60,714 bases of DNA from Candidatus Staskawiczbacteria bacterium RIFCSPHIGHO2_02_FULL_43_16 (GTDB taxonomy: Bacteria > Patescibacteriota > Minisyncoccia > Minisyncoccales > Staskawiczbacteraceae): NCBI GenBank assembly GCA_001821935.1, contig MHOU01000012.1:54070-114783 (forward strand), in the 5' to 3' direction. Shown here one piece after another: positions 2,509-60,714 of this stretch. The notes under the pieces are model-generated. The model saw only the letters and a list, made by a program, of their open reading frames with translations. It was not told the origin of the DNA and did no database searches. How positions within the stretch are numbered: position 1 is the stretch's first letter; each line of letters opens with the position of its first letter. Made by a program: the position numbers and the translations under genes.

Positions 2509-3569
2509 GTCAATAAACCCATCGTTTTGAATATCTCCTTGAACCTTTGTTGGTAGGTATGGGTCCGTATTGTACGTTCGTAACCGGCCATAGCAATGGA
2601 CTGGCGCTCACTGTCGTTACTCAAGTAGTGCCTAATTTTTTTAACCAGACTGTCAGTATCTGTAAAGCAAACTATTTCTTTACCAATAACATAGTAATCT
2701 TCCAGATGACTAGCATAGCCTGTCAATAAAAATCCACCACAGCCGGTAATTTCAAAATTCCTAGCTTTAATTTGATGTTTAGTTATGGCAGATACAACCG
2801 ACTTAGCGTTTTTGAGCCAGCGCGCGGGTGATTCCAATAAAACCCGTCCGCGGGCATCCTTTTTGAAAAACACCTTTGCAACTGATGTTGCGTTTATTTG
2901 GCCGGAGGCATTAGAAAAATTAAGATTAATTTTGCTTTGATTGAATATATTAATCATTTCTTGCTGGGAAACCCTGCCGTTGGGCCACCCCCTGCCGAAA
3001 CATTCCACAGCTATTCCTGCTTTTTTGAGCTGACCCACCAGCCTTTTGCGTCCGCTATGCGGTTGCCCCACAAACGTTACATCGTACTTCTTGGAAAGAT
3101 CCGATTTTTTGTAGAAAAAATGGTTAACCCCCCACTGGCTTTTAATAATGTTTTTTTGGCTATTCTTTTGGTATTTTAGAAAAGCATCCGCGTCAGTGGT
3201 AATGGCAAAGGTGAAGACCGGAGCCCAGTATTTTGAAAAATTATCAAACCGCCAATGATCATCAGCAAACCAATTGCAGGTTACCAGGCCGCTAGCCGTG
3301 ATGTTTTGAACCGTTTCCTTGCTGACCACATCTGACACCAAAAAGAAAAAACACAGGTTCGGCTTCTCGCGAAAGGCCGTTTCCAGCAACCGTTCGTTCA
3401 TCTGTGCAACCCCTAATCGGCCGGCTACTTGGTCAAAGGGAAAATAGACAATCTCGTGTGTCCCATGATCCATATTTTTTAAAGAATCGTAAAAGTTGCA
3501 GTGCTCAAAACTGAGCCCGCGGGCGGGATCGCCATAGTCATATTGTTGGGCTACATATAAAATTTTCAT
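2505..3569 (-). CDS. CgeB-like glycosyltransferase (DUF3880 / Glyco_trans_1_2-like)
   Basis: 354 aa. MKILYVAQQYDYGDPARGLSFEH... N-terminus and C-terminal FEITGCGGFLLT...ERQSIAMAGYERT resemble CgeB-family proteins. Has a 4-nt overlap with the downstream GT2 gene. Confidence 0.55.
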   Translation of the reverse strand: MKILYVAQQYDYGDPARGLSFEHCNFYDSLKNMDHGTHEIVYFPFDQVAGRLGVAQMNERLLETAFREKPNLCFFFLVSDVVSKETVQNITASGLVTCNWFADDHWRFDNFSKYWAPVFTFAITTDADAFLKYQKNSQKNIIKSQWGVNHFFYKKSDLSKKYDVTFVGQPHSGRKRLVGQLKKAGIAVECFGRGWPNGRVSQQEMINIFNQSKINLNFSNASGQINATSVAKVFFKKDARGRVLLESPARWLKNAKSVVSAITKHQIKARNFEITGCGGFLLTGYASHLEDYYVIGKEIVCFTDTDSLVKKIRHYLSNDSERQSIAMAGYERTIRTHTYQQRFKEIFKTMGLLT

Positions 3570-14783: not shown

Positions 14784-15020
14784 TTTATTATTATTTTGTA
14801 GTGTTTTAATTATTTGGACTATATTTCTCGTCGCATCGACCGATTAATAGTTAAATCCCAGAGTATTCGTTTGGGCTCGCAAAGCGAGCTTTGGCGGTGA
14901 ACCCTTGCGGGGTTCTAAATTTCGCGGTTTTACGTATTAACAACGAAGTTCATTGTCAAAACCCACTCGCGAATAATTTAACTATATTTAGCGACTCGTC
15001 AATTGTTAATGGTATTATTT

Positions 15021-15066
15021 CCGTAAATTGCGAAAACCTTTTTAAAAAGGTTTTCGCAATTTACGG
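15021..15066. terminator. 46-nt perfect palindrome immediately 3' of the anti-sigma-like gene
   Basis: ccgtaaattgcgaaaaccttttt|aaaaaggttttcgcaatttacgg is perfectly self-complementary. It starts 8 nt after the stop codon at 15074. Confidence 0.5.
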
Positions 15067-15073
15067 AAGGTTC

Positions 15074-22755: not shown

Positions 22756-24315
22756 ATGTCAACAAACTTAACTCCCAAACAAAAACAGATATTAGAATAT
22801 ATAAAAAAACGTATTACAAAGAATGGCTATGCTCCCTCTCTTGGGGAAATAGGGACGAGATTCAAGCTAGTAAAATCAACAATACATCAGCACGTTGATT
22901 CCTTGATAGAAAAAAAATACTTAAACAAATCAGATTATCGGGCGAGATCATTAGAAATCCCCGAAGATAAAAATGTAACTTTTGTAGAAATCCCGCTCTT
23001 AGGCACGATAACAGCGGGCAAACCGATTGAAGCAATCGAAGTTTTAGGAGAAACCATTTCTATTCCAAGCAATGGGGTAGGGAGAATAAAAGACTATTAT
23101 GCATTGAGAGTATCTGGCGACAGCATGATTGACGAAGGAATTTTTGATGGAGATATAGTGGTCCTGAAGAAGCAATCCGTTGCTGAAAATGGGCAAACTG
23201 TGGTTGCTATAATTGATGACAATTCAGCAACTCTTAAAAAAATCTACAAAGAAGAAAGCCGATTCAGGCTACAACCAGCTAATCAAACGATGCTTCCTAT
23301 TTATAGAAGAGAGGTTGAAGTGCGCGGTGTGGTGATAAAAATCATAAGAGATCTTGAAGGTCAAACTAAAAAACAATTTTCAACTTTAGACTTATTTGCT
23401 GGAATAGGCGGATTAAGGCTGGGTTTCGAAAAAGCTGGCTTTAAAACTGTTTTTTCAAATGATTTTGACAAGCAATGCAAGATAACCTATGATTTGAATT
23501 TCAAAGATTCTAAGTTGATAGTAGAAGATATAAACAAAATAGAAATTAATGATCTCCCGGAATTTAGCTTCCTATTAGGAGGCTTCCCCTGCCAGGCTTT
23601 TTCAATAGCTGGATACAGAAAAGGATTTAGAGATGAAAAGGGAAGGGGGAATTTATTCTTCAGACTGGCAAAAATAATAGATGAACGGGAACCAGAGGGA
23701 TTTTTGCTTGAAAATGTTAAAAATTTGAAAACTCACGATAACGGAAAAACTTTTGGAATTATTAAAAAAACCCTCAAAAATCTTGGCTATCACGTAAAGG
23801 CAGAAGTGCTCAATAGTATGGAGTATGGCAATATCCCCCAAAATAGAGAGCGCATCTATATCGTCGGTTTCAAAAATAAAGATCACTACGAAAAATTTAG
23901 GTTCCCCGAACCTGTTGAGCTGACAACTAAAATCACTGATTTGCTTGAAAGTGAAGTTCCAGAAAAATACTATTACAATAAGAAGCCTCTATTCAATAAG
24001 CTTAAGGACTTCATTAAAGAAAGAGGAAAAGTATATCAGTGGCGCAGGAGGTATGTAAGAGAAAATAAGAAAAATGTCTGCCCTACTTTAACGGCAAACA
24101 TGGGAACAGGAGGCCATAATGTGCCGATTATCAAAGATAAAAATGGCATCAGGAAACTAACTCCTTTCGAGTGTGCGCGCATACAAGGATTTCCAGTTGA
24201 TTATAAATTACCCAAAATAGCAGATTCTGCTCTATACAAGCAATTCGGTAATTCGGTAAGCGTGCCAGTTATTGAAGCTATAGCAAAAAATATTAAAACA
24301 GCAATTACATCCTAA
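22756..24315 (+). CDS. Fusion protein: full LexA-like repressor (wHTH + S24 autopeptidase) joined to a DNA (cytosine-5) methyltransferase
   Basis: Residues 1-205 form the LexA part: LTPKQKQILEYIKK...GYAPSLGEIG, cleavage-site-like ITAGKP (A87-G88), GDSM (S123) and ATLKK (K161). Residues from about 208 to 519 form the MTase part: DLFAGIGG (motif I), GGFPCQAFS (IV), ENVKNL (VI), QNRERIYIVG (VIII), RKLTPFECARIQGFP (IX) and QFGNSVSVPV (X). Confidence 0.85.
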   Translation: MSTNLTPKQKQILEYIKKRITKNGYAPSLGEIGTRFKLVKSTIHQHVDSLIEKKYLNKSDYRARSLEIPEDKNVTFVEIPLLGTITAGKPIEAIEVLGETISIPSNGVGRIKDYYALRVSGDSMIDEGIFDGDIVVLKKQSVAENGQTVVAIIDDNSATLKKIYKEESRFRLQPANQTMLPIYRREVEVRGVVIKIIRDLEGQTKKQFSTLDLFAGIGGLRLGFEKAGFKTVFSNDFDKQCKITYDLNFKDSKLIVEDINKIEINDLPEFSFLLGGFPCQAFSIAGYRKGFRDEKGRGNLFFRLAKIIDEREPEGFLLENVKNLKTHDNGKTFGIIKKTLKNLGYHVKAEVLNSMEYGNIPQNRERIYIVGFKNKDHYEKFRFPEPVELTTKITDLLESEVPEKYYYNKKPLFNKLKDFIKERGKVYQWRRRYVRENKKNVCPTLTANMGTGGHNVPIIKDKNGIRKLTPFECARIQGFPVDYKLPKIADSALYKQFGNSVSVPVIEAIAKNIKTAITS

Positions 24316-24779
24316 GCAACGCCTGCCATTGTTTTTAAAATGGCCCAATTTTCTTTATATCGAGCAATTTTTTTAAGCGATACTGATTTGCCCATTTCCG
24401 CCGTGTCTCCAATCGGTATGATATAACACTCACCGCTCCTTCCATCTACCACAAGTATAATATCGCAATCTTTAGTAGAATATTTATATGTCCTTTGAGC
24501 TACGGCTCTATTGATTTGCTGCCCGCTTCTTCCGCCACCCGTAAGACCTACGCTACCACCGGAAGTACCTTTGATTTGTATCCTTAGTAACCTGCTATTG
24601 CCCACATCAATAATCGCATCATATCTGCCATTAGTAACATCTACCCGCGAACACGGAAAACCAGCCTTTATACATCTGCCCACTCCGATCATTTCGTCAG
24701 AGTTGCCATTGATAGTCCTAAAGATCCCCTTATCAATATTTGTTAAATTTTTTGACCATTCATTTCCTTGTTGTGGCAT
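24312..24779 (-). CDS. Small PD-(D/E)xK-like nuclease, candidate cognate restriction endonuclease
   Basis: 155 aa. The pattern E(MIGVGRCIKAGF)...YDAIIDV...LLRIQIKG fits an E...D...(Q)xK nuclease core. Its 3' end overlaps the methyltransferase gene by 4 nt, tail to tail. Confidence 0.45.
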   Translation of the reverse strand: MPQQGNEWSKNLTNIDKGIFRTINGNSDEMIGVGRCIKAGFPCSRVDVTNGRYDAIIDVGNSRLLRIQIKGTSGGSVGLTGGGRSGQQINRAVAQRTYKYSTKDCDIILVVDGRSGECYIIPIGDTAEMGKSVSLKKIARYKENWAILKTMAGVA

Positions 24780-24887: not shown

Positions 24888-24945
24888 TTGGTTAAATTAT
24901 GGGCAGGCTACTTCCTTGAAGAAACTTTTTCGAGTGAAGCCATTA

Positions 24946-25214
24946 GGGCCACGGAACGTATTAAAACTAATTTTAGCGGTGTAAATTTGGGCAAGATTCA
25001 AGGCGTCAGAAACGAAGTGTACCCATAGCGGTACACGAGTTTTGTAACAACGAAGAATCTTGCCCAAATTTACCCGCCCGAAGGGAAACAAAAAAGTGAA
25101 AGATTTCTTCGTTACGCCTCCTCGACGTAGCGCGCAGGCTATGCCTCGTCGGCAAGCCTCGAAATCTTTCACTTTTTAGTTTCTAAACCTTAGTTTTAAT
25201 ACGTTCCATGGCCC
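24946..25214 (-). mobile_element. Nested-palindrome (MITE-like) element, copy E1
   Basis: The outer 25-nt inverted repeat is 24946-24970 / 25190-25214 with 1 mismatch. It encloses two long hairpins: gtaaatttgggcaagattc...gaatcttgcccaaatttac (19 bp) and gtgaaagatttc...gaaatctttcac (12 bp). Homologous in reverse orientation to 59905-60173. Confidence 0.55.
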
Positions 25215-27843
25215 TGGGCAGCAGCCGTGGCAATTCAAAGGTGATACTGCCATCCTTTTCATCAATCAATACCCTGCTACCTTCAGCAATCTCGTTGGTA
25301 ACAATTTTAATACTCAATGGGTCTAAAATCAACCGCTGGATAACCCGCTTTAACGGCCGAGCACCTAAGTTTGCATCGTACCCTTCTTTCAAAAGTAGTT
25401 CTTTCGCCTTTTCAGAAATTTTAATGCTGATTTCTTTGGCCGCCAGGCGTTTCTGAACTTTTGCCATTTCCAGGTCTACAATGTTTTTTATTTCCGGCGC
25501 CTTCAAATAATTAAAGATGACAATTTCATCAATTCTATTGATAAATTCTGGCCTAAACTGGTCGCGCAGTGAATTCATCACCTTATCTTTCATTGATTCG
25601 CGTTCGGCTACATCTTTTTGGCTGGAAAACCCGATGGCCGACATTTTATTGATAAAGTCAGACCCCACGTTGCTGGTCAGAACGATAATGGTGTTCTTAA
25701 AAGAAACTAGGCGGCCTTTGGAATCGGTCAGCCGGCCGTCTTCAAAAGTTTGCAGCAAAATGTTAAACACCTCCGGGTGGGCTTTTTCCACTTCATCAAG
25801 CAAAATCACCGAATATGGCCGGCGCCTGACTTTTTCCGTCAGCTGCCCCGCTTCTTCATAACCCACATAACCGGGCGGACTGCCGATAATTTTTGAAACG
25901 GTGTGACGTTCCATATATTCAGACATATCCAGGCGAATCATGGCCTTTTCATCGTCAAACAAAAATTCAGCCAAAGCCCGGGCGGTTTCGGTTTTACCCA
26001 CCCCCGTAGGCCCCAAAAACAAGAAGCTTCCCAGTGGCTTATTTTCCTCGGAAATGCCGGCTCTGGCCCGGCGAATGGCGCGAGAAATGGCGCTAATAGC
26101 CTCTTGTTGGCCAATAACCCGTCGGTTAAGCGTGGCTTCCATGGCTTCCAGTTTTTTAGCCTCTTCGGTAATTAAGCGCATCACCGGAATCCCGGTCCAG
26201 CGTGAAACCACCCGGGCCACATCTTCTTCCGTTACCTCTTCTTTCAAAAAGTGGTGGGTTTTTTGCAGTTTCACCAATTTTTGCTCAATGGCTTTTTGTT
26301 CTTTTAAAAGGGTTGGGATTTTTCCATATTTTATTTCCGCCACCTTTTCCAAATCAGCCTCGCGCTGGGCAATTTCGGTTTGGTTATACAAGGCGTCAAC
26401 TTTCTCCCGGATGCTTTTTATTTTATTAATCAGTTCTTTTTCGGCGTTCCACTTGGCGGAAAGCTCCTTCACCTTTTCTTTTATCTCTGAAAGTTCCTTG
26501 GCAATCACTTTCAGCCGCTTTTCCGAATCTTTTTCTTTTTTTAAGGCCTGTTTTTCAATTTCTAATTTGGTGATTTCCTCTTCATACTTTTCCAATTCCT
26601 GGGGTTCAGACTCAATTTCCAGGCGCAGGGCGCTACCCGCTTCATCCATCAAATCTACCGCCTTGTCCGGTAAAAAGCGGTCGGCAATGTAGCGGCTGGA
26701 AAGTTCCACCGCCGCCTTGATAGCCGAGTCCTTGATGCGCACGCCATGGTGCACTTCATACTTTTCTTTAATGCCGCGTAAAATGGCCGTAGCATCTTCA
26801 ATAGAGGGCTCTTGCACATAAATCGGCTGGAATCTGCGCTCTAATGCTGGGTCTTTTTCAATATATTTTTGGTATTCTTTTAAGGTGGTGGCGCCGATAG
26901 CCCGCAATTCCCCGCGCGCCAAAGCCGGCTTTAACAAATTAGAAGCATCAATCGCGCCCTCGGCCGCGCCTGCGCCAACCAGGGTATGCAGTTCATCAAT
27001 AAATAAAATATATTTGTCCGGAGCCCGGCTAATTTCTTTCAGTAGCGCTTTTATCCGGGTTTCAAACTCTCCCCGGTACTTGGTGCCGGCAATAATCTGG
27101 CCTAAATCCAGCGAAACCACTTCTTTGTTTTTTAAAAATTCCGGCACGTTGCCGCGGGCCACCCGCTGGGCGAAGCCTTCCACAATGGCGGTTTTTCCCA
27201 CCCCGGCTTCCCCAATCAACACCGGGTTATTTTTCGTCCGGCGGGAAATAATCTGCATCAACCGGCGGATTTCATTATCGCGCCCGATAATCGGGTCAAT
27301 TTTTCCGGCCGCCGCAAGATCCGTCAAATTCCGGGTGTATTTTTCTATCACCTGGTACTTTGATTCCGGTTCGGGATCGGTCACGCGCTGACCGCCGCGG
27401 ACCTGCGCCAAAATCTTCAGCACTGCATCATAATTTATCATGGATTTTTCCAGCACTTCCCGGGCCATACTCTTTACATCCAGCAGCCCCAAAAACAAAT
27501 GCTCAACGGAAATAAATTCGTCTTGCATTTTAATAGATTCCTGCCGAGCCTTATCCAGCACCTTAGCCATGTCCTGGGTTAGGTAAAACTGGCCAAACGA
27601 GGTTGGGTTGAGCATGGCGGAAATTTTTGAAATCTGGCTTTCGGTTTTCTTTTTTAAGACTTCATTGTCAACCCCCATTTTCTGCAAGATTGTCAAAACC
27701 AGCGACCCTTCTTGGGTCATCAATGCCATAAGCAAATGCAGGGCATCAATTTGCTGCTGCCCGCGTTCCTGCGCGATTTGCTGGGCTGCCATAATGGCAT
27801 CCTGCGCTTTGTTGGTAAAATTGGCCCCTCCTGGTTGCATCAT
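25183..27843 (-). CDS. clpB: ClpB AAA+ disaggregase chaperone
   Basis: 886 aa with two AAA modules: GEAGVGKTAIVEG / ILFIDELH and GPTGVGKTETARALA / VILLDEVEKAH. Also has a Clp_N domain and a middle coiled coil. Confidence 0.95.
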   Translation of the reverse strand: MMQPGGANFTNKAQDAIMAAQQIAQERGQQQIDALHLLMALMTQEGSLVLTILQKMGVDNEVLKKKTESQISKISAMLNPTSFGQFYLTQDMAKVLDKARQESIKMQDEFISVEHLFLGLLDVKSMAREVLEKSMINYDAVLKILAQVRGGQRVTDPEPESKYQVIEKYTRNLTDLAAAGKIDPIIGRDNEIRRLMQIISRRTKNNPVLIGEAGVGKTAIVEGFAQRVARGNVPEFLKNKEVVSLDLGQIIAGTKYRGEFETRIKALLKEISRAPDKYILFIDELHTLVGAGAAEGAIDASNLLKPALARGELRAIGATTLKEYQKYIEKDPALERRFQPIYVQEPSIEDATAILRGIKEKYEVHHGVRIKDSAIKAAVELSSRYIADRFLPDKAVDLMDEAGSALRLEIESEPQELEKYEEEITKLEIEKQALKKEKDSEKRLKVIAKELSEIKEKVKELSAKWNAEKELINKIKSIREKVDALYNQTEIAQREADLEKVAEIKYGKIPTLLKEQKAIEQKLVKLQKTHHFLKEEVTEEDVARVVSRWTGIPVMRLITEEAKKLEAMEATLNRRVIGQQEAISAISRAIRRARAGISEENKPLGSFLFLGPTGVGKTETARALAEFLFDDEKAMIRLDMSEYMERHTVSKIIGSPPGYVGYEEAGQLTEKVRRRPYSVILLDEVEKAHPEVFNILLQTFEDGRLTDSKGRLVSFKNTIIVLTSNVGSDFINKMSAIGFSSQKDVAERESMKDKVMNSLRDQFRPEFINRIDEIVIFNYLKAPEIKNIVDLEMAKVQKRLAAKEISIKISEKAKELLLKEGYDANLGARPLKRVIQRLILDPLSIKIVTNEIAEGSRVLIDEKDGSITFELPRLLPRAMERIKTKV

Positions 27844-28129: not shown

Positions 28130-29180
28130 AGAAAAAGTGCTCGCCCAACGCCTCAATGACTTTTTCTCCTAAGCTGCAAGAATCGCAGTGCTTTAACATT
28201 CCATAATATGATTGCAGAGTTTGGTGAAACGAAGATGCTGATATTTTTTCTTCTTTAAAATCGGCTATTTTGGCGTTTAATTTCCTAAACATCCGATGGC
28301 CGGTTTTCACGCGCAACATTTTATGGTGCGGAAAGCTTACATAACCCAAAAAATCAATCCCCTGGTGATATTTTCTGATTTCAATTTTATTGGGATGCAA
28401 AGATAGTTTTAAATTATCCCGTAAAAACGTATCAATCTTTGGAATTAATTCCTTCAGATATGCCACGTTCTCCGACAAAATAACTAAATCATCACAGTAT
28501 CTGATGTAGTACTTTATTTTTAGAGTACGTTTTATAAACTGGTCCAATTCGTTTAAGTAAATATTGGCAAAAATCTGGCTGGTAACATTGCCCAAGGGAA
28601 GCCCCTTGGCAAAACTACTGATAATCTCTTGCAGCAGCCAAAGGACATTTTTGTCACCTATCCGTTTTTTAATCAAATCCATCAAAATATCCTGGTCAAT
28701 GGAATCAAAAAACTTTTTGATATCGCATTTTAAGACAAAGCAATTGCGCGTGTTATTTTTACCAGCTTTATTGGCAAATGCACTAAGCCGGTTGACTGCC
28801 CGATGGGTTCCTTTTTCATCTCTGGATGAGTAAGAATCAAAAATAAAAGATTTGTCAAAAATAAGATATAGCTTTACAAATATCGCGTGGTGCAAAACCC
28901 GGTCTCTTACGGTTGCTTTGTTAATGGCGCGCAGTTTCGGGTCTTTGACGTAAAATGATTCATAGGGCGCGTGGTGATAGATTTTCTTTTTTAATTCTTC
29001 ATGAAGGGCGCGAATTGCTCTTGCATGCTCTTTTTCAAAGAGTATAACATCAAGCTTTTTGGCTTTCCCTTGTTTAAAATAATCCCACGCTGAAAGCAAA
29101 TTTTTAAGCGAAATTATTTCACTGAAAAGATCAAGGCTTTTAACCCCCCCCCCAATCAGTTTTTGGTTTTGAGTATCCAT
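28128..29180 (-). CDS. DGR reverse transcriptase (RT1)
   Basis: RT motifs CDIKKFFDSID, LPLGNVTSQIFANIYLNELD (the SQ signature of DGR RTs) and YIRYCDDLVIL (YxDD). A TR lies directly upstream with a matching VR. Confidence 0.9.
   Translation of the reverse strand: MDTQNQKLIGGGVKSLDLFSEIISLKNLLSAWDYFKQGKAKKLDVILFEKEHARAIRALHEELKKKIYHHAPYESFYVKDPKLRAINKATVRDRVLHHAIFVKLYLIFDKSFIFDSYSSRDEKGTHRAVNRLSAFANKAGKNNTRNCFVLKCDIKKFFDSIDQDILMDLIKKRIGDKNVLWLLQEIISSFAKGLPLGNVTSQIFANIYLNELDQFIKRTLKIKYYIRYCDDLVILSENVAYLKELIPKIDTFLRDNLKLSLHPNKIEIRKYHQGIDFLGYVSFPHHKMLRVKTGHRMFRKLNAKIADFKEEKISASSFHQTLQSYYGMLKHCDSCSLGEKVIEALGEHFF
29144..29153 (-). repeat. G10 homopolymer in codons 10-13 of RT1 (in frame, encodes GGG)
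   Basis: There are 10 consecutive C on the plus strand. The minus strand reads att ggg ggg ggg gtt. Confidence 0.9.
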
Positions 29181-29360: not shown

Positions 29361-29598
29361 CGTTATATTATCTAATTTTATCCGTATCACCGGCAGTTCA
29401 AAAATGTGAATGCCTGGGTTATCTGTGTCCGTCGCACAGGAGTCTTCCGAGCCCGAAGATGCTCGAGAAAATTAGACAAGCAGTTTCCTGTGGCCGGCGA
29501 GGGAAACCAGCCACGGATGCAGTATGGCAAAAAAACAGCGCGAATTCAAGATGGCTTGAAAGCCAATCTTAAACTCGCGCCTTAATTGCTCGTCCTCA

Positions 29599-30466: not shown

Positions 30467-30520
30467 AGCAGTCATAGCCATAAAACACTGATTTTTCAGT
30501 AGCTTATGGCTATGACTGCT
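30467..30520 (-). promoter_or_regulatory. 17-bp perfect hairpin in the 5' leader of the DGR-1 target gene
   Basis: agcagtcatagccataa-20 nt-ttatggctatgactgct ends about 25 nt upstream of the SD. Confidence 0.5.
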
Positions 30521-30690: not shown

Positions 30691-31050
30691 TTAACTCTTT
30701 TTTAACCGTAAATCAACTATTTCTTCCACATCAGCCACTCGAGATTCCAGATTATCAAATTCTTCTTTACGCACTACATCAACCGCATTCAAATTTATTT
30801 TTTGAACTTCTTTGTGAATTTCTTTGATATTTTTATCCAATCCGTCAATTTTTTCGTCAAATCTTTTGATAATTAAATCCTGAGTGCCTTGCAAAGCAGT
30901 TTTCACCATACCCGCCATAGATTCTTGATTGGCTTCAAGTTTTTTACCCACACTTTTCAATAGGGATCTTTGATTCTCCTTGAATTTAGTATCAAGAATG
31001 TCCACCAGTTCCTTCCTTGTAAAAGTGTTATTTTTTTGTTTTTTCATCAT
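30691..31050 (-). CDS. Small coiled-coil protein, unknown function
   Basis: 119 aa from MMKKQKNN with a heptad-like charged sequence. The longer ORF start at 31116 is considered unlikely. Confidence 0.45.
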   Translation of the reverse strand: MMKKQKNNTFTRKELVDILDTKFKENQRSLLKSVGKKLEANQESMAGMVKTALQGTQDLIIKRFDEKIDGLDKNIKEIHKEVQKINLNAVDVVRKEEFDNLESRVADVEEIVDLRLKKS

Positions 31051-31148
31051 CAGAGAAAAATTTAAAATTATGTTTTTGCAAAAATTCCAGAACTGGCTTG
31101 TTACAATTACATGCACTTATTATACGCCCCGAAAAACCCATGTCAAAT

Positions 31149-53036: not shown

Positions 53037-53924
53037 ATGCAAGAGATTAAAACCGTAAAAATTTCTGACAAAAATTATCCTGAAAGCATAAAAACACTTT
53101 CCGATGCGCCGGAAGTTTTATATTATCGCGGAGTTTTGCCTACGCCAGAAGAAATATGCGTGGCGGTGGTGGGCACGCGCCGGCCAAGCGACTACGGCCA
53201 ACAGGCAACCATTGAAATTGCCGGCGGATTGGCTAGTGCGGGCGTGACGGTTGTTTCGGGTATGGCTCCAGGCATAGACACATTCGCTCACCGCACATGT
53301 GTTGAAAGAGGGAGACGAACCATTGCCGTAATTGGTACCGGGTTGGATGAAAAAACTTTGTACCCACAACAAAATTTAGAATTAGCGCGACAGATTATCA
53401 AACACGGAGGTTGTCTTATATCAGAATATCCACCTAATACTCCCGGTTACGCAGGAAACTTTCCACAGAGAAACCGCCTAGTTGTGGCTTTAAGCGAGGG
53501 CGTAGTGGTAACTGAAGCAAAGAAAAGATCAGGGTCACTTATTACTGCCAACCTCGCAAAATTACAAAAGAAAGTGCTATTTGCCGTGCCTGGACAAATT
53601 TACATGGCAAATGCTAGCGGACCCAATAAACTCATCAAGGAGGGCGCCCAACTAATTGAAAGTGCGCAAGACGTACTAGACGTTTTAGGAATAAATAATG
53701 CTAGACTGGTTTCAGGAACAGTTAATTCCCCGTTAATTCCCCTGGGGGAATTAACTGTCCCTGAAACCTTGATTTTCACCGCCCTCAAAGAGGGCTCGCT
53801 CTATATTGACGCTATCATTGAAAAAACAAAATTGTCAGCACCTGTCGCCGGATCCACCCTTGCGCTTATGGAAATTTCGGGTAAGATACGAAACCTGGGA
53901 GGCAACACATATTCGTTAAATTAG
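53037..53924 (+). CDS. dprA: DNA processing protein DprA (Smf)
   Basis: VAVVGTRRPSDYGQ and GMAPGIDTFAHR, with a C-terminal winged-helix-like tail. The start is at the ATG at 53037. Confidence 0.9.
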   Translation: MQEIKTVKISDKNYPESIKTLSDAPEVLYYRGVLPTPEEICVAVVGTRRPSDYGQQATIEIAGGLASAGVTVVSGMAPGIDTFAHRTCVERGRRTIAVIGTGLDEKTLYPQQNLELARQIIKHGGCLISEYPPNTPGYAGNFPQRNRLVVALSEGVVVTEAKKRSGSLITANLAKLQKKVLFAVPGQIYMANASGPNKLIKEGAQLIESAQDVLDVLGINNARLVSGTVNSPLIPLGELTVPETLIFTALKEGSLYIDAIIEKTKLSAPVAGSTLALMEISGKIRNLGGNTYSLN

Positions 53925-56054: not shown

Positions 56055-56137
56055 GCCGAGGTGGCGAAACGGCAACCGCACAGCACTCAAAATGCTGCGA
56101 GCTCATGCTCTTGAGGGTTCAACTCCCTCCCTCGGCA
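56055..56137 (+). tRNA. tRNA-Leu (anticodon CAA), type II with long variable arm
   Basis: Acceptor stem gccgagg/cctcggc, anticodon stem-loop cagca-ctCAAaa-tgctg, variable-arm hairpin gagc-tcat-gctc, and T arm gaggg-ttcaact-ccctc. No CCA is encoded. Confidence 0.9.
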
Positions 56138-56142
56138 CTTTT

Positions 56143-56832
56143 ATGCCAAAAGCAAAATTATCAAGCATAAATTTTGATTGGACATCAGATTTGGCCTACG
56201 TAATCGGACTCCTAGCAACCGATGGCTGTCTTTCTAATGATGGCAGGCACATCACCATGCGCTCGTCAGACATCCAACAATTGGAAACCTTTAGAAAATG
56301 CCTAAACATTTCCAATAAAATAGGACAGACCTTCAATGACGGCTGGGCAAAGAAACCGGCATATAGAATACAGTTCGGCAACGTGCAATTTTATAAATGG
56401 CTTTTAGAAATTGGCCTATTTCCAGCAAAAACTTATACCATAGGAGAAATAAAAGTTCCCGATAAATACTTTTTTGATTTTTTACGGGGACATTTGGACG
56501 GAGACGGCTCAATTGTAACCTATACTGATAATTGGAATACTTTCAAGAATCCAAAATATATTTATAAAAGAATTTATATACGTTTTATATCTGCCAGCGA
56601 AAAACATATAGCTTGGTTGGCAGAAAATATTTTCAGATTAAGTAAAATAAAAGGGCATTTACATCAGAACAAGCCAACAAGGGATTTTCAAACTACGAGC
56701 ATATGGGAGATAAAATTTACAAAGAATGATTCTTTAAAATTATATCCCTACCTATATCCATCAAATGACATTGCCTGCTTATTAAGAAAAAGACGAAAAA
56801 TAGAAGATTTCATTAAAACATTAGCCCAATAA
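56143..56832 (+). CDS. Free-standing double-motif LAGLIDADG homing-endonuclease-like protein
   Basis: LAYVIGLLATDGCL and FLRGHLDGDGSI. The ATG at 56143 lies 5 nt after the tRNA. The longer ORF start at 56092 falls inside the tRNA. Confidence 0.8.
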   Translation: MPKAKLSSINFDWTSDLAYVIGLLATDGCLSNDGRHITMRSSDIQQLETFRKCLNISNKIGQTFNDGWAKKPAYRIQFGNVQFYKWLLEIGLFPAKTYTIGEIKVPDKYFFDFLRGHLDGDGSIVTYTDNWNTFKNPKYIYKRIYIRFISASEKHIAWLAENIFRLSKIKGHLHQNKPTRDFQTTSIWEIKFTKNDSLKLYPYLYPSNDIACLLRKRRKIEDFIKTLAQ

Positions 56833-58638: not shown

Positions 58639-59674
58639 CTATTTCCATGGCTTATCAATCCCAAAGCCGGCAATAAGCTCAAGAAGTTCCTGCTTCACTA
58701 AAAATGCATTACAATGCTTGAGTATGCCAAAGTATGATAGTAACGTTGCATCAAGAGACTCTTTTTTAATTAATCCACTGCGAAAATCAATTAACCAGGA
58801 TTTTACCCTTTTAAACATCCTCTTTTTCGTTTTTACCCTTAAAACAGTAAAATAAGGAAAACTGACATAGCCTAAAAAATCTATCCCTTGGTGATACTTA
58901 GAAATCGTCACCTTATTGGGATGAAGTGACATTTTCAAACGGGTTCTCAAAAAAATATTTATCCTTTGGATCAAATCTTCCAAATACTTTTTGTCTTCGG
59001 ACAAAATAACAAAATCATCGCAATAACGGATATAATACTTTACGCGCAACGTATGCTTTATAAAACCATCAAGTTCCGCGAGGTAAATATTGGCAAATAA
59101 TTGGCTCGTAATATTTCCCAAGGGCAAACCTGCCGAAAAACTTTTAGTGATCACTTCTATGAGCCATAAAGATTGCTCATCTTTTACTCGTTTCTTGATA
59201 AGGTTTAATAAAATAGCCTGGTCAACATTGTCGAAAAACTTTTTAATATCACATTTTAAAACAAAACAATTCTTGGTATTGTTGTTACTTTCTTTCTGGA
59301 AAAATTCATGCAAACGGCGCACAGCCCGGTGCGTACCCTTGCCAATCCTACAAGAATATGAGTCATAAATAAACGTCTTATCAAAAATAGGGTACAATTT
59401 CCTAAATAACGCATGATGAACCACCCGGTCACGCACACAAGCTTTGTTTATTTTCCGCAGCTTGGGATCCTTAACATAAAACGTCTCGTAACCGCCATGA
59501 GAGTATGTTTTACTTTGAAGTTCTTTTTGGATAAAGTTTAAATTATTCTTTAAATTCTTTTTGAATGCAATAACATCCGGTTTTTTAGTTTTGTCCAGCT
59601 CAAATTCCGCCCAGGCATTTTTAATATTTTCCCAACTAGTAAGCCCCCCCCCCCATTTGTTTCAAAATTTTCAT
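58639..59674 (-). pseudogene. DGR reverse transcriptase RT2, frame broken by a G11 homopolymer (intact if the run were G10)
   Basis: RT body 58639-59436: CDIKKFFDNVD, LPLGNITSQLFANIYLAELD and YIRYCDDFVIL. The upstream 59437-59643 continues the same frame (LTSWENIKNAW...FYVKDPKLRKINKAC). The ATG at 59674 is in the +1 frame relative to it, across the 11-G run. Confidence 0.8.
59644..59654 (-). repeat. G11 homopolymer at codons 7-11 of RT2
   Basis: There are 11 consecutive C on the plus strand. Confidence 0.9.
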
Positions 59675-59691
59675 GGATTTTTTAATTAACA

Positions 59692-59717
59692 CAAAAGGAG
59701 TTTTTCAACTCCTTTTG
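59692..59717 (-). promoter_or_regulatory. 11-bp hairpin with GAAA loop in the TR2-RT2 spacer
   Basis: caaaaggagtt-tttc-aactccttttg. The loop reads GAAA on the minus strand. Confidence 0.55.
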
Positions 59718-59725
59718 ATGTGGAG

Positions 59726-59840
59726 ACTTCGGGACGGACACGGGCATTCGGATTGGCATAGTTGGGATTGTCGTTGTTGACATGGACCCTGCCCGGATTG
59801 GCGTCGAAGTAAGCGACGTTGCCATTGCGAAAGCGCGAGC
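59726..59840 (-). repeat. DGR-2 template repeat (TR2)
   Basis: 115-nt gap-free alignment to 60391-60505 with 15 mismatches by my count. Fourteen are at minus-strand adenines of the TR. The frame encodes SRFRNGNVAYFDANPGRVHVNNDNPNYANPNARVRPE. Confidence 0.9.
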
Positions 59841-59904
59841 CCATCATATTGCATAGTTACATCCATGTCACCGACCGCACAATAAGCGTACGCTGTCTGG
59901 GTTG

Positions 59905-60173
59905 GGAGTGCGAAACGGAATTGGCATTGTTTTAGAAACCAAAAAATGAGATGATTTTCAGGCGCGGCGAGGAGGCATAGCCTTGTGCTACGCCGACAAA
60001 GCCGCAACGCAGAAATCAGCCATTTTTTGGTTTCCCTCGGGGCGAGCGAATTAAGGCAAGCTTCTTCGTTGCTCATCGAAAACGATGCGCAGAGGCATCG
60101 ATTTCTTCTTCGCGCCTTGAATCTTGCCCTAATTCGCTACCGCTAAAACAATGCCAATTCCGTTTCGCACTCC
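59905..60173 (+). mobile_element. Nested-palindrome (MITE-like) element, copy E2, inserted in the DGR-2 VR-TR spacer
   Basis: A perfect 31-nt inverted repeat (59905-59935 / 60143-60173) encloses hairpins aaaccaaaaaatg...cattttttggttt and agcgaattaaggcaag...cttgccctaattcgct. The paralogous DGR-1 spacer is continuous across this point. Confidence 0.6.
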
Positions 60174-60308
60174 TCACTCTGTCCGTAGCAGAGAAGTTTT
60201 TTGAGTCTTTGATACTCATTATAATTATGCAAGCAGTTTCCTGTGGCAAACCATTTCTTGCTTATTGGGAAAACTATTTACCACGTCAGTATGTTACATA
60301 AAAAAAGA

Positions 60309-60337
60309 GCGCTTTGCAACAGATTGTTGCAAAGCGC
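60309..60337 (-). terminator. Intrinsic terminator of the DGR-2 target gene
   Basis: The minus strand reads gcgctttgcaaca-atc-tgttgcaaagcgc followed by tcttttttt, 17 nt after the stop at 60354. Confidence 0.75.
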
Positions 60338-60353: not shown

Positions 60354-60714
60354 TTACGCCTTCGCTCCGCTCGGCTCCAGTTGGCGGGAAACTGCGGGAC
60401 GGACACGGGCAAACGGATAGGCATAGTCGGGACCGTCGCCGTTGACAAGGACCCCGCCCGGATTGGCGTCGAAGACAGCGACGTAGCCATAGCGAAAGCG
60501 CGAGCGGGTCCGGGTCAACTTCTCGAGGTTCAAGAGCTGTTTCTTGCCGGTGGCAAGATAGACTCCCAAATCAAGAAGCAAGCCGTCGCGCAGGATGGGG
60601 TCGTTGTAGCCTTCCACCCCATCCTGGAATTTCTTCCATCGCTGGTTGGCAGACTCGTTGCTCGGCTCACCGGTCAACGACCGGGTAAAGCCGAGCAGAT
60701 ACGGGCCTTCTTCT
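60354..60714 (-). CDS. DGR-2 target (variable) protein, 5'-truncated by the window edge
   Basis: The open frame runs to the window end. VR2 lies near the C-terminus. GC-rich like the DGR-1 target. Confidence 0.75.
   Translation of the reverse strand, partial: EEGPYLLGFTRSLTGEPSNESANQRWKKFQDGVEGYNDPILRDGLLLDLGVYLATGKKQLLNLEKLTRTRSRFRYGYVAVFDANPGGVLVNGDGPDYAYPFARVRPAVSRQLEPSGAKA
60391..60505 (-). repeat. DGR-2 variable repeat (VR2)
   Basis: Counterpart of TR2. Encodes SRFRYGYVAVFDANPGGVLVNGDGPDYAYPFARVRPA. Confidence 0.9.

Follow-up and report, generated by a model that had tools for sequence, protein, structure and literature searches.

Among the bacterial repeats closest to the element considered here are the hairpin-forming miniature inverted-repeat transposable elements (MITEs) that are co-transcribed with their neighbors, namely Correia/NEMIS of Neisseria, ERIC/IRU of the enterobacteria and bcr1 of Bacillus; their terminal repeats are conserved, and insertion duplicates the target, TA for Correia and Yersinia ERIC and TTTAT for bcr1. 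The Rickettsia palindromic elements (RPEs) insert in frame and are translated within the host protein, and the IS200/IS605 PATEs and the REP/REPIN sequences are moved by HUH Y1 transposases (TnpA, RAYT), which act on single strands and recognize folded hairpin DNA; these carry subterminal hairpins of ~20-40 nt and use a fixed 4-5-nt target beside one end. Here we analyze a 60,714-nt stretch (hereafter the window) from Candidatus Staskawiczbacteria bacterium RIFCSPHIGHO2_02_FULL_43_16 (assembly GCA_001821935.1, contig MHOU01000012.1, positions 54,070 to 114,783 of the forward strand), in which a 269-nt nested palindrome, copy 1 (59905-60173, minus strand), interrupts the spacer between the variable region (VR) and the template repeat (TR) of the second of two diversity-generating retroelements (DGRs). 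We consider it probable that this palindrome belongs to a family of mobile DNA elements in Parcubacteria, ~265-274 bp long, non-coding and non-autonomous, represented in Ca. Staskawiczbacteria and Ca. Azambacteria, for which the best label on our reading is a mobile DNA family that is MITE-like in shape and duplication-free.

MITE-like sequences that match the terminal repeats of resident insertion sequences (ISs), form arrays and have replaced DGR parts are described at the DGR loci of Thiohalocapsa PB-PSB1 (bioRxiv 10.1101/2023.09.22.558884), and the rRNA genes of the candidate phyla radiation (CPR) hold abundant introns and uncharacterized short insertions (PMC11270868); full-text literature searches returned no description of elements such as ours in CPR, these rRNA-gene insertions being the nearest. 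The family shares with Correia, ERIC and bcr1 a short, non-coding body with terminal inverted repeats, a very stable fold and possible RNase III sites, as well as an occurrence in transcribed regions, in either orientation and patchily among close relatives; it departs from them in lacking a target-site duplication, in an outer stem whose pairing but not sequence is conserved, and in folding into a three-way junction where those form a single hairpin. Like the RPEs, it is a palindromic, selfish sequence found in protein and RNA genes, with a host reading frame running into it, but that frame stops after 10 codons and displaces the native tail, and no sequence relationship exists. The absence of duplication and the site preference recall PATEs and REPINs, and hairpin recognition of their type would account for conserved pairing with free sequence; unlike in those systems, however, all 270 nt here belong to a single nested fold closed by a stem of 26-31 bp, and no common tetranucleotide flanks the four known sites. 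With the Thiohalocapsa sequences the family has in common that small hairpin-forming repeats invade DGR loci, yet ours is a single element at a permissive TR-leader junction, and no related IS was found in the window. Finally, the intervening sequences (IVSs) of 23S rRNA and the CPR rRNA insertions are likewise extended stem-loops at helix tips or bases, sporadic, probably laterally spread and present in CPR, but 23S rRNA IVSs occupy rRNA sites and are excised by RNase III, whereas members of this family lie at the 3' end of an mRNA, in a DGR leader and in intergenic DNA.

Results

An Insertion in the DGR-2 Leader

Both DGRs lie on the minus strand of the window. DGR-2 is arranged as target gene, VR, terminator-like hairpin (60309-60337), TR, small hairpin and reverse transcriptase (RT) gene, with a VR-TR spacer of 546 nt, and DGR-1 (30453-28128) has the same layout with a spacer of 293 nt. 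The first-pass annotation of the window had taken the two spacers to be homologous, and this holds: CAAGCAGTTTCCTGTGGC occurs exactly twice in the window, once per spacer (29477 and 60230), and both spacers contain ctgggtt and the ctNtgtccgtNgcaNag hairpin. It had further described 269 nt bounded by a perfect 31-nt inverted repeat, and the arms are indeed 100% complementary (59905-59935, with the tip GGAGTGCG, and 60143-60173), stand 207 nt apart and are the only occurrences of the 31-mer in the window (0.00 expected from shuffles). Two inner hairpins lie between them as proposed, with stems close to, if somewhat longer than, the 13 and ~16 bp first given: the inverted-repeat scan finds hairpin A (59935-60034), which corresponds to helices 7-9 of the family structure below, on a basal stem of 14 bp without mismatch (59935-59948/60021-60034), and hairpin B (60045-60138) on a 20-nt basal stem that is 90% paired (18/20; 60045-60064/60119-60138). 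In alignments of the copies, hairpin B, read on the minus strand, bears the family's most conserved motifs, GGGCAAGATTCAAGGCG and CAACGAAGAAGCTTGCC. The folding energy of copy 1 is about -147 kcal/mol on each strand, with z = -11.6 and -13.2 against dinucleotide shuffles.

The evidence that this palindrome is inserted comes from a syntenic DGR-2 orthologue (Sua5-target-RT-SHMT) retrieved with the RT from a sister lineage, in loci L175, L176 and L177 of our comparison set; its RT is 86% identical, and the two loci agree at 87% of 1,326 aligned positions. At exactly the point concerned it is empty and reads GGACAGAG/GT/AACACAG, so that ...CTGCGACGGACAGAG-GT-AACACAG... in the orthologue stands against ...CTGCTACGGACAGAG-TGA[269 nt]C-AACCCAG... 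in the window. On the DGR strand, 273 nt (TGA + 269 + C) thus take the place of 2 nt (GT), which lengthens the region upstream of TR2 by a net 271 nt, in agreement with the ~270 nt first estimated. The insertion is not perfectly seamless, 2 nt being replaced by 4: the junction bases TGA (60174-60176, minus strand) and the C at 59904 form no direct repeat, and empty sites have GT or AT in their place. DGR-1, which had been proposed as the empty site, is uninterrupted there (29414-29439, minus strand; plus-strand reading ctgggtt-at-ctgtgtccgtcgcacag), its minus strand passing from hairpin P2 of the leader described below (29423-29439) through AT (29422-29421) to AACCCAG (29420-29414), but it is a paralogue and not a true empty site. 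The leaders of L069, L085, L180 and L182 are uninterrupted at this point as well. Long inverted repeats within the VR-TR spacer are limited to DGR-2 and L069 in a set of ~100 related DGR loci, and that of L069 is unrelated in sequence and sits at a different site; copy 1 is therefore not a feature of all DGRs of this type, and the sequence comparison argues that the 269-nt palindrome is a recent insertion into the DGR-2 leader.

Five Copies with a Common Three-Way-Junction Fold

A whole-window inverted-repeat scan and a covariance model identify a second copy, copy 2 (24945-25215, plus strand, 271 nt), whose plus strand is 65% identical to the minus strand of copy 1 and has the same architecture, with an outer stem (24945-24970/25190-25215) and two hairpins (24981-24999/25055-25073 and 25085-25107/25161-25183); between these two copies, 21 pairs have changed on both sides and 2 on one side. 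A close relative of copy 2, copy 2b, occurs in a second Staskawiczbacteria lineage (L172/L173). Further copies were reached indirectly: a profile of the accidental open reading frames (ORFs) across both window copies retrieved 20, then 27 short "protein" clusters from public assemblies, two of which led to the DNA of copy 4, 37 nt after a 5S rRNA gene (L183-L185), and of copy 5, overlapping the 3' end of a DUF4015 gene in Ca. Azambacteria (GCA_001774085.1). Over the same conserved DNA the frame of these translations alternates between RALNLALIR and SRLESCPNSLR, and this switching between copies means that the short "proteins" are not coding; a coding micro-ORF inside the element was rejected on the same ground, and the ~30 protein clusters are, as judged from their sequences, spurious translations of additional copies. 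The family thus comprises five sequenced copies at four sites plus ~30 further traces, measures 265-274 bp, has only short ORFs without a conserved frame, shows 60-74% identity between subfamilies, and occupies unrelated contexts in both orientations. Directly behind copy 4 stands a second version, with 2 mismatches, of the 24 nt that end the 5S rRNA gene (GGCGAGAGTAGGTAGCTCTCTTAC; L183 2892-2915 and 3230-3253), which suggests that the element arrived with a piece of another 5S locus or induced a long duplication.

A model-guided alignment of the five copies (covariance model R1) yields a common structure of 104 pairs in which 92.5% of the cells are standard pairs and 46 pairs have changed on both sides, a number reached in 0 of 500 shuffles and compared with at most 7 in slid-partner controls. 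All five copies form one three-way junction, in which a 26-31-bp outer stem encloses two hairpins of ~95 nt each. The outer stem is the most variable part (21 of its 30 pairs changed on both sides) and yet is still paired; the constant parts are the basal stems of the inner hairpins and the junction strings UUUUAGCGG, CCGCCCGAAGGGAAA and UUUCUAAA, and the tip GGAGYGCG is common to copies 1, 4 and 5, or three of the four subfamilies. Watson-Crick pairs account for 88% of the paired cells. Against R1, the minus strand of copy 1 reaches 269.8 bits and the plus strand 137.7 bits, so its family-forward orientation is the direction of DGR-2 transcription.

A scan of both window copies against Rfam, which the first-pass annotation had suggested, gave no family at the gathering threshold or at E up to 10, and neither copy contains a group I or group II intron core (E up to 10), with the same library detecting a group I intron in L183. 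Searches with nhmmer and the covariance model over ~1.2 Mb of CPR and phage loci returned no copies beyond the five loci, and no extra copy lies in the 10 kb to the left or the 8 kb to the right of the window. Exact 20-21-mers of the copy 1 repeat have 0 matches in IMG/VR, where scans for the core motifs gave chance matches only; in GTDB representatives the repeat has 4 matches, all by chance within the nuoH coding sequence (PECETELV), and in JGI metagenome contigs it has 0, a weak negative since the window's own JGI contigs were also not returned. Several assemblies break inside RT2 or copy 2 (the short Logan/ENA contigs L007-L009, L153 and L173); short-read assembly appears to break off at the palindromes and at the paralogous RTs, and copies of the family are probably under-represented in public contigs.

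Insertion at the Same Position of clpB in Two Lineages

Copy 2 replaces the last 11 native codons of clpB (25183-27843, minus strand), whose last 10 codons and stop (25183-25215) now come from the element arm, the protein ending ...LPRLLPR/AMERIKTKV. The displaced native tail MASLEKVSSRK (24908-24944, minus strand; A ATG GCT TCA CTC GAA AAA GTT TCT TCA AGG AAG TAG) lies untranslated behind the element. The native ending ...LLP(K/R)MxSPEKVSS(R/K)K is found in 117 of the 120 closest ClpB clusters, and among these the element-derived tail is confined to the window protein and P0003/P0004. The clpB site is empty in L174, the ClpB of which is 93% identical, while in the second Staskawiczbacteria lineage (P0003) copy 2b occupies the same clpB position and is followed by an intact native tail. 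As a candidate for the mobilizing enzyme we considered the PD-(D/E)XK nuclease encoded next to copy 2 (24312-24779), which was rejected because the gene beside the L172 copy is unrelated.

Identity between the two clpB copies is 94%, as against 46% at fourfold sites and 58% at third positions of clpB, the synonymous sites being saturated between the two lineages. Since the family tolerates a divergence of at least 35%, constraint alone is not sufficient to explain this identity, and the common ancestor of the clpB copies is far more recent than that of the host genes. The displaced tails are intact, consensus-like ORFs in both filled lineages and differ mostly by synonymous or conservative changes, from which we infer that they diverged while translated, before the insertions; the bases that flank the copies differ between the lineages and so show no trace of a tract of homologous conversion. 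Both lineages are present in sample ERZ27254767. The simplest reading of these sequences is a recent insertion, independent or lateral, at the same clpB nucleotide position, which in turn implies a target preference.

No target-site duplication is present at the DGR-2, clpB (in either lineage), 5S or DUF4015 sites, with matched empty sites available for the first two. The 5' flanks read GTGA, CATT/CATC, CAAG and TGTA, and the opposite flanks are also mutually unlike. As the first-pass annotation had stated, no transposase is present, neither among the called genes of the window nor in the 18 kb around it, and no autonomous parent IS with matching ends was recognized in the same region; there is no HUH gene in the window.

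The Structured Leader and the State of DGR-2

Copy 1 lies within a leader whose structure was derived with RNAalifold from five sequences, namely DGR-1, DGR-2 and L069 (the insertions of the latter two removed), L175 and L085; 16 of its 37 pairs have changed on both sides. Helix P0 (5' strand 60221-60232, partner 59849-59862; 12 pairs, several with two-sided changes) encloses P1, P2, the conserved single strand AUAACYCAG, P3 and GGUGAYAUGGA, and the TR follows directly. On the minus strand of DGR-2, P1 (60203-60217, GAGT...ACTC) covaries to GGGT...ACCC in L085, and P2 (CTCTGCTACGGACAGAG, 60177-60193), kept in 5-7 homologous leaders with a compensatory change, is directly 5' of the insertion; on its 3' side (59849-59903) come AACCCAG (59897-59903), the variable hairpin P3, GGTGACATGGA (59862-59872) and the 3' strand of P0 (59849-59862). 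The insertion point is thus the P2/P3 junction, inside the P0-closed domain, at which L180 and L182 have a small extra hairpin. The covariation indicates that the leader is probably transcribed as RNA, and the P2/P3 junction and the P1 loop are the kind of position at which a structured RNA tolerates an extra arm. A sigma-70-like GTGACA-17-TATGAT upstream of the TR, which as a promoter would leave the element outside the transcript, was set aside, short of proof, because it overlaps the covarying 3' strand of P0.

A leader with the motif CACAGGAAACUGCUUG, P0, P1-P3 and GGUGAYAUGGA, and without an Rfam match, is shared by avd-less DGRs of this RT clade, and was located in the window (59849-60247, minus strand, and 29368-29494), in L069 (3010-3313), in L085 (677-802) and in L175, L180 and L182. 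Neither window DGR has a recognizable avd gene. An avd-derived 5' part of the DGR RNA is known from Bordetella phage, and the leader may stand in for it. Directly upstream of the DGR-1 target, a 141-aa ORF (30691-31116, minus strand) has weak Pfam matches to helical bundles (4HB_MCP_1, E 0.0025); it could encode a very divergent Avd-like accessory protein or be unrelated. The palindrome of L069, the closest relative of DGR-1 (RT 70% identical), is its own AT-rich, 183-nt nested structure in the P1 loop (3041-3223), with 25-nt arms that match at 96% and inner repeats of 30 and 19 nt; no further copy of it was found among the sequences compared.

The VR of DGR-2 (60387-60505, minus strand) forms the 3' end of a 246-aa target gene that is cut by the window end and complete in L001, and the TR (59722-59840, minus strand) is an 87% identical direct repeat of it. 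By hand alignment, 14 of the 15 TR/VR mismatches fall at TR adenines (BLAST counts 16, of which 14 at A); TR decay as a sign of a dead DGR-2 was dropped as uninformative, there being exactly one non-adenine mismatch in the window and sister lineages alike. The RT gene (58639-59675, minus strand) is frameshifted by +1 in a run of G11 (59646-59656), which is found in all six independent assemblies, and in the sister orthologue, which lacks the element, the run is G10 and the 347-aa RT is intact. These DGR RT genes begin with a homopolymeric G run encoding Gly-Gly-Gly (window 59646-59656 and 29146-29155; L069 ~3526-3535), which is in frame as G10 in RT1 and the sister RT2, and at this position 18 of 51 related metagenomic DGRs have runs of 7-12; on this evidence the run looks like a slipped-strand on/off switch or a site of recurrent decay. 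The extra length could, as first suggested, affect expression of the TR RNA, and either the element or the G11 frameshift, in whichever order they arose, may silence DGR-2. Between TR and RT, a hairpin AAAGGAGUU...AACUCCUUUUGUGUU (59657-59722, minus strand) is kept in L069, L085 and L175, and resembles the Rfam RT-4 motif at a weak, sub-threshold level (25 bits, E 0.07).

Elsewhere in the window, a tRNA gene (56055-56137, 55 bits) overlaps the start of a 246-aa LAGLIDADG_3 ORF (56092-56832, Pfam 24.4 bits), which may be a homing-endonuclease gene lodged at the tRNA gene. A perfect 50-nt intergenic palindrome with 25-nt arms and no loop lies at 15019-15068, and other long hairpins occur at 53708-53768 and 30467-30520.

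Discussion

The filled and empty sites at DGR-2 and clpB and the presence of copies in unrelated contexts bear out the mobility that the first-pass annotation had proposed, and five copies, together with the empty orthologues at both sites, make this a family of several copies whose presence or absence differs between lineages. Of the description as a non-autonomous, MITE-like or foldback element, the non-autonomy and the palindromic shape stand, whereas the target-site duplication is lacking and the outer repeat is conserved in pairing, not in sequence. We propose that the element would be moved in trans by an enzyme encoded elsewhere, one that probably recognizes folded ends, that is hairpin or junction DNA, and is not a DDE cut-and-paste transposase; the element would have some preference for its target, which insertion leaves unduplicated and in which a few bases can be replaced. 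At DGR-2, the 31-bp pairing of the ends would let copy 1 fold away as an extra arm with P0 still able to form, which may explain why the insertion persists there; DGR-2, with its frameshifted RT, may just as well be switched off already in this lineage. Within a transcript, the 31-bp stem would offer RNase III an obvious substrate.

Several observations weigh against this proposal. No mobilizing enzyme was found in the window and its flanks, and the exact-word scans of IMG/VR, of the GTDB representatives and, as a weak negative, of the JGI contigs returned no near-identical source copy for the recent insertion of copy 1. The copy number is low, with two diverged copies in ~78 kb of genome, and the four sites share neither a target motif nor a flanking word; complementarity or identity between flank and element does not exceed that of shuffles either, and guide-like targeting was dropped as a candidate. 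The outer-stem sequences differ by ~40% between subfamilies, unlike what would be seen with one transposase binding terminal repeats. Lastly, G-U pairs outnumber A-C mismatches 25:12 on the family-forward strand, a count biased by the derivation of the structure on that same strand; the excess is a weak hint of selection at the RNA level.

An ordinary MITE, a deletion derivative of an IS with a DDE transposase that is cut and pasted by way of its terminal inverted repeats, would match the family in its length, its lack of an ORF, its long terminal repeats and its occurrence in both orientations, as well as in the tips GGAGYGCG...CGCRCTCC common to copies 1, 4 and 5, and the Thiohalocapsa report shows that MITE-like sequences do occur at DGR loci (bioRxiv 10.1101/2023.09.22.558884). 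We nonetheless regard such an origin as unlikely, given that none of the four sites, two of them with matched empty counterparts, has a target-site duplication, that bases are replaced at the copy 1 junction, that the terminal repeats, apart from their tip, are less conserved than any other part of the element, and that no IS in the window matches it. The retention of pairing in so variable a stem also fits a different and, in our judgment, similarly doubtful idea, namely a new kind of element defined by its structure: a 270-nt three-way junction of DNA, or of RNA, that inserts site-specifically and without duplication and passes laterally between co-occurring CPR lineages. In such a system the outer stem would be free to vary, with only the fold and the junction motifs being recognized, and movement could depend on an unlinked hairpin-specific recombinase or pass through an RNA intermediate that is copied by any of these genomes' many RTs.

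The very strong covariation over 104 pairs and the invariant junction motifs would also be expected of a family of genes for a structured non-coding RNA that has its own role in the cell and happens to be encoded at these sites, as would a model score of ~270 bits on one strand against ~135 on the other and the excess of G-U over A-C. Against that stand the placement of one copy inside a coding sequence, where it truncates ClpB, and of another over the 3' end of the DUF4015 gene, the varying orientation of the copies to local transcription, and their patchy presence among close relatives; moreover, the element contains no promoter-like site, its terminator-like apical hairpin is not kept in copies 4 and 5, perfect stems of 14-31 bp with 88% Watson-Crick pairing go beyond the needs of selection on RNA, and Rfam holds no match. 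All this makes an RNA gene improbable as an explanation of the family.

The clpB copies bring up a further alternative, an intervening sequence removed from the RNA, either by RNase III excision at the 31-bp stem in the manner of 23S rRNA IVSs or by splicing. In two lineages the native tail can still be read in frame, as an intact ORF, downstream of the element, removal of GG...CCCT would restore ...LLPRMASLEKVSSRK and its stop codon, a perfect 31-bp duplex would, once transcribed, be an obvious RNase III substrate, and CPR rRNA genes are rich in introns and uncharacterized short insertions (PMC11270868). The intact tail is, however, equally explained by recent insertion; RNase III excision does not re-join the RNA, group I and group II signatures are missing, and the known copies lie at gene ends or between genes and never in mid-gene, as would be the case for an element that is not spliced. 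We accordingly give removal from RNA little credence.

The first-pass annotation had also allowed for a structured RNA module. An integral RNA component of the DGR, for example one that processes or primes the TR RNA, would be in keeping with the location in a structured TR leader and with the distance of at most 3 kb from a DGR RT to both window copies; this reading is already refuted by the empty orthologue, the element being missing from L175/L176, DGR-1, L069, L085, L180, L182 and ~95 further loci and the copies in L172, L183 and L186 having no RT nearby, so that its probability is negligible. A palindrome made on the spot by replication template switching or snap-back synthesis, for which the perfect stems, the nesting and the unrelated palindrome in the homologous L069 leader might speak, is just as firmly refuted for the family of copy 1, homologues that share its internal motifs being present in other genera and at four sites unrelated to one another, while the palindrome of L069 could still be such a product.

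We return, then, to a duplication-free mobile DNA family as the probable reading. CPR (Patescibacteria) genomes are small, and we found little in the literature on their non-autonomous mobile DNA; covariance model R1 provides a concrete, modeled example that can be counted across CPR genomes. The absence of duplication, the 46 pairs changed on both sides and the copies at the same clpB nucleotide point to a mobilizing activity outside the standard MITE picture. The element also marks permissive sites in the conserved and apparently undescribed leader RNA of avd-less CPR DGRs, and the sister lineage without it forms a natural pair with the window lineage for asking whether the insertion and the G-tract frameshift silence the DGR.

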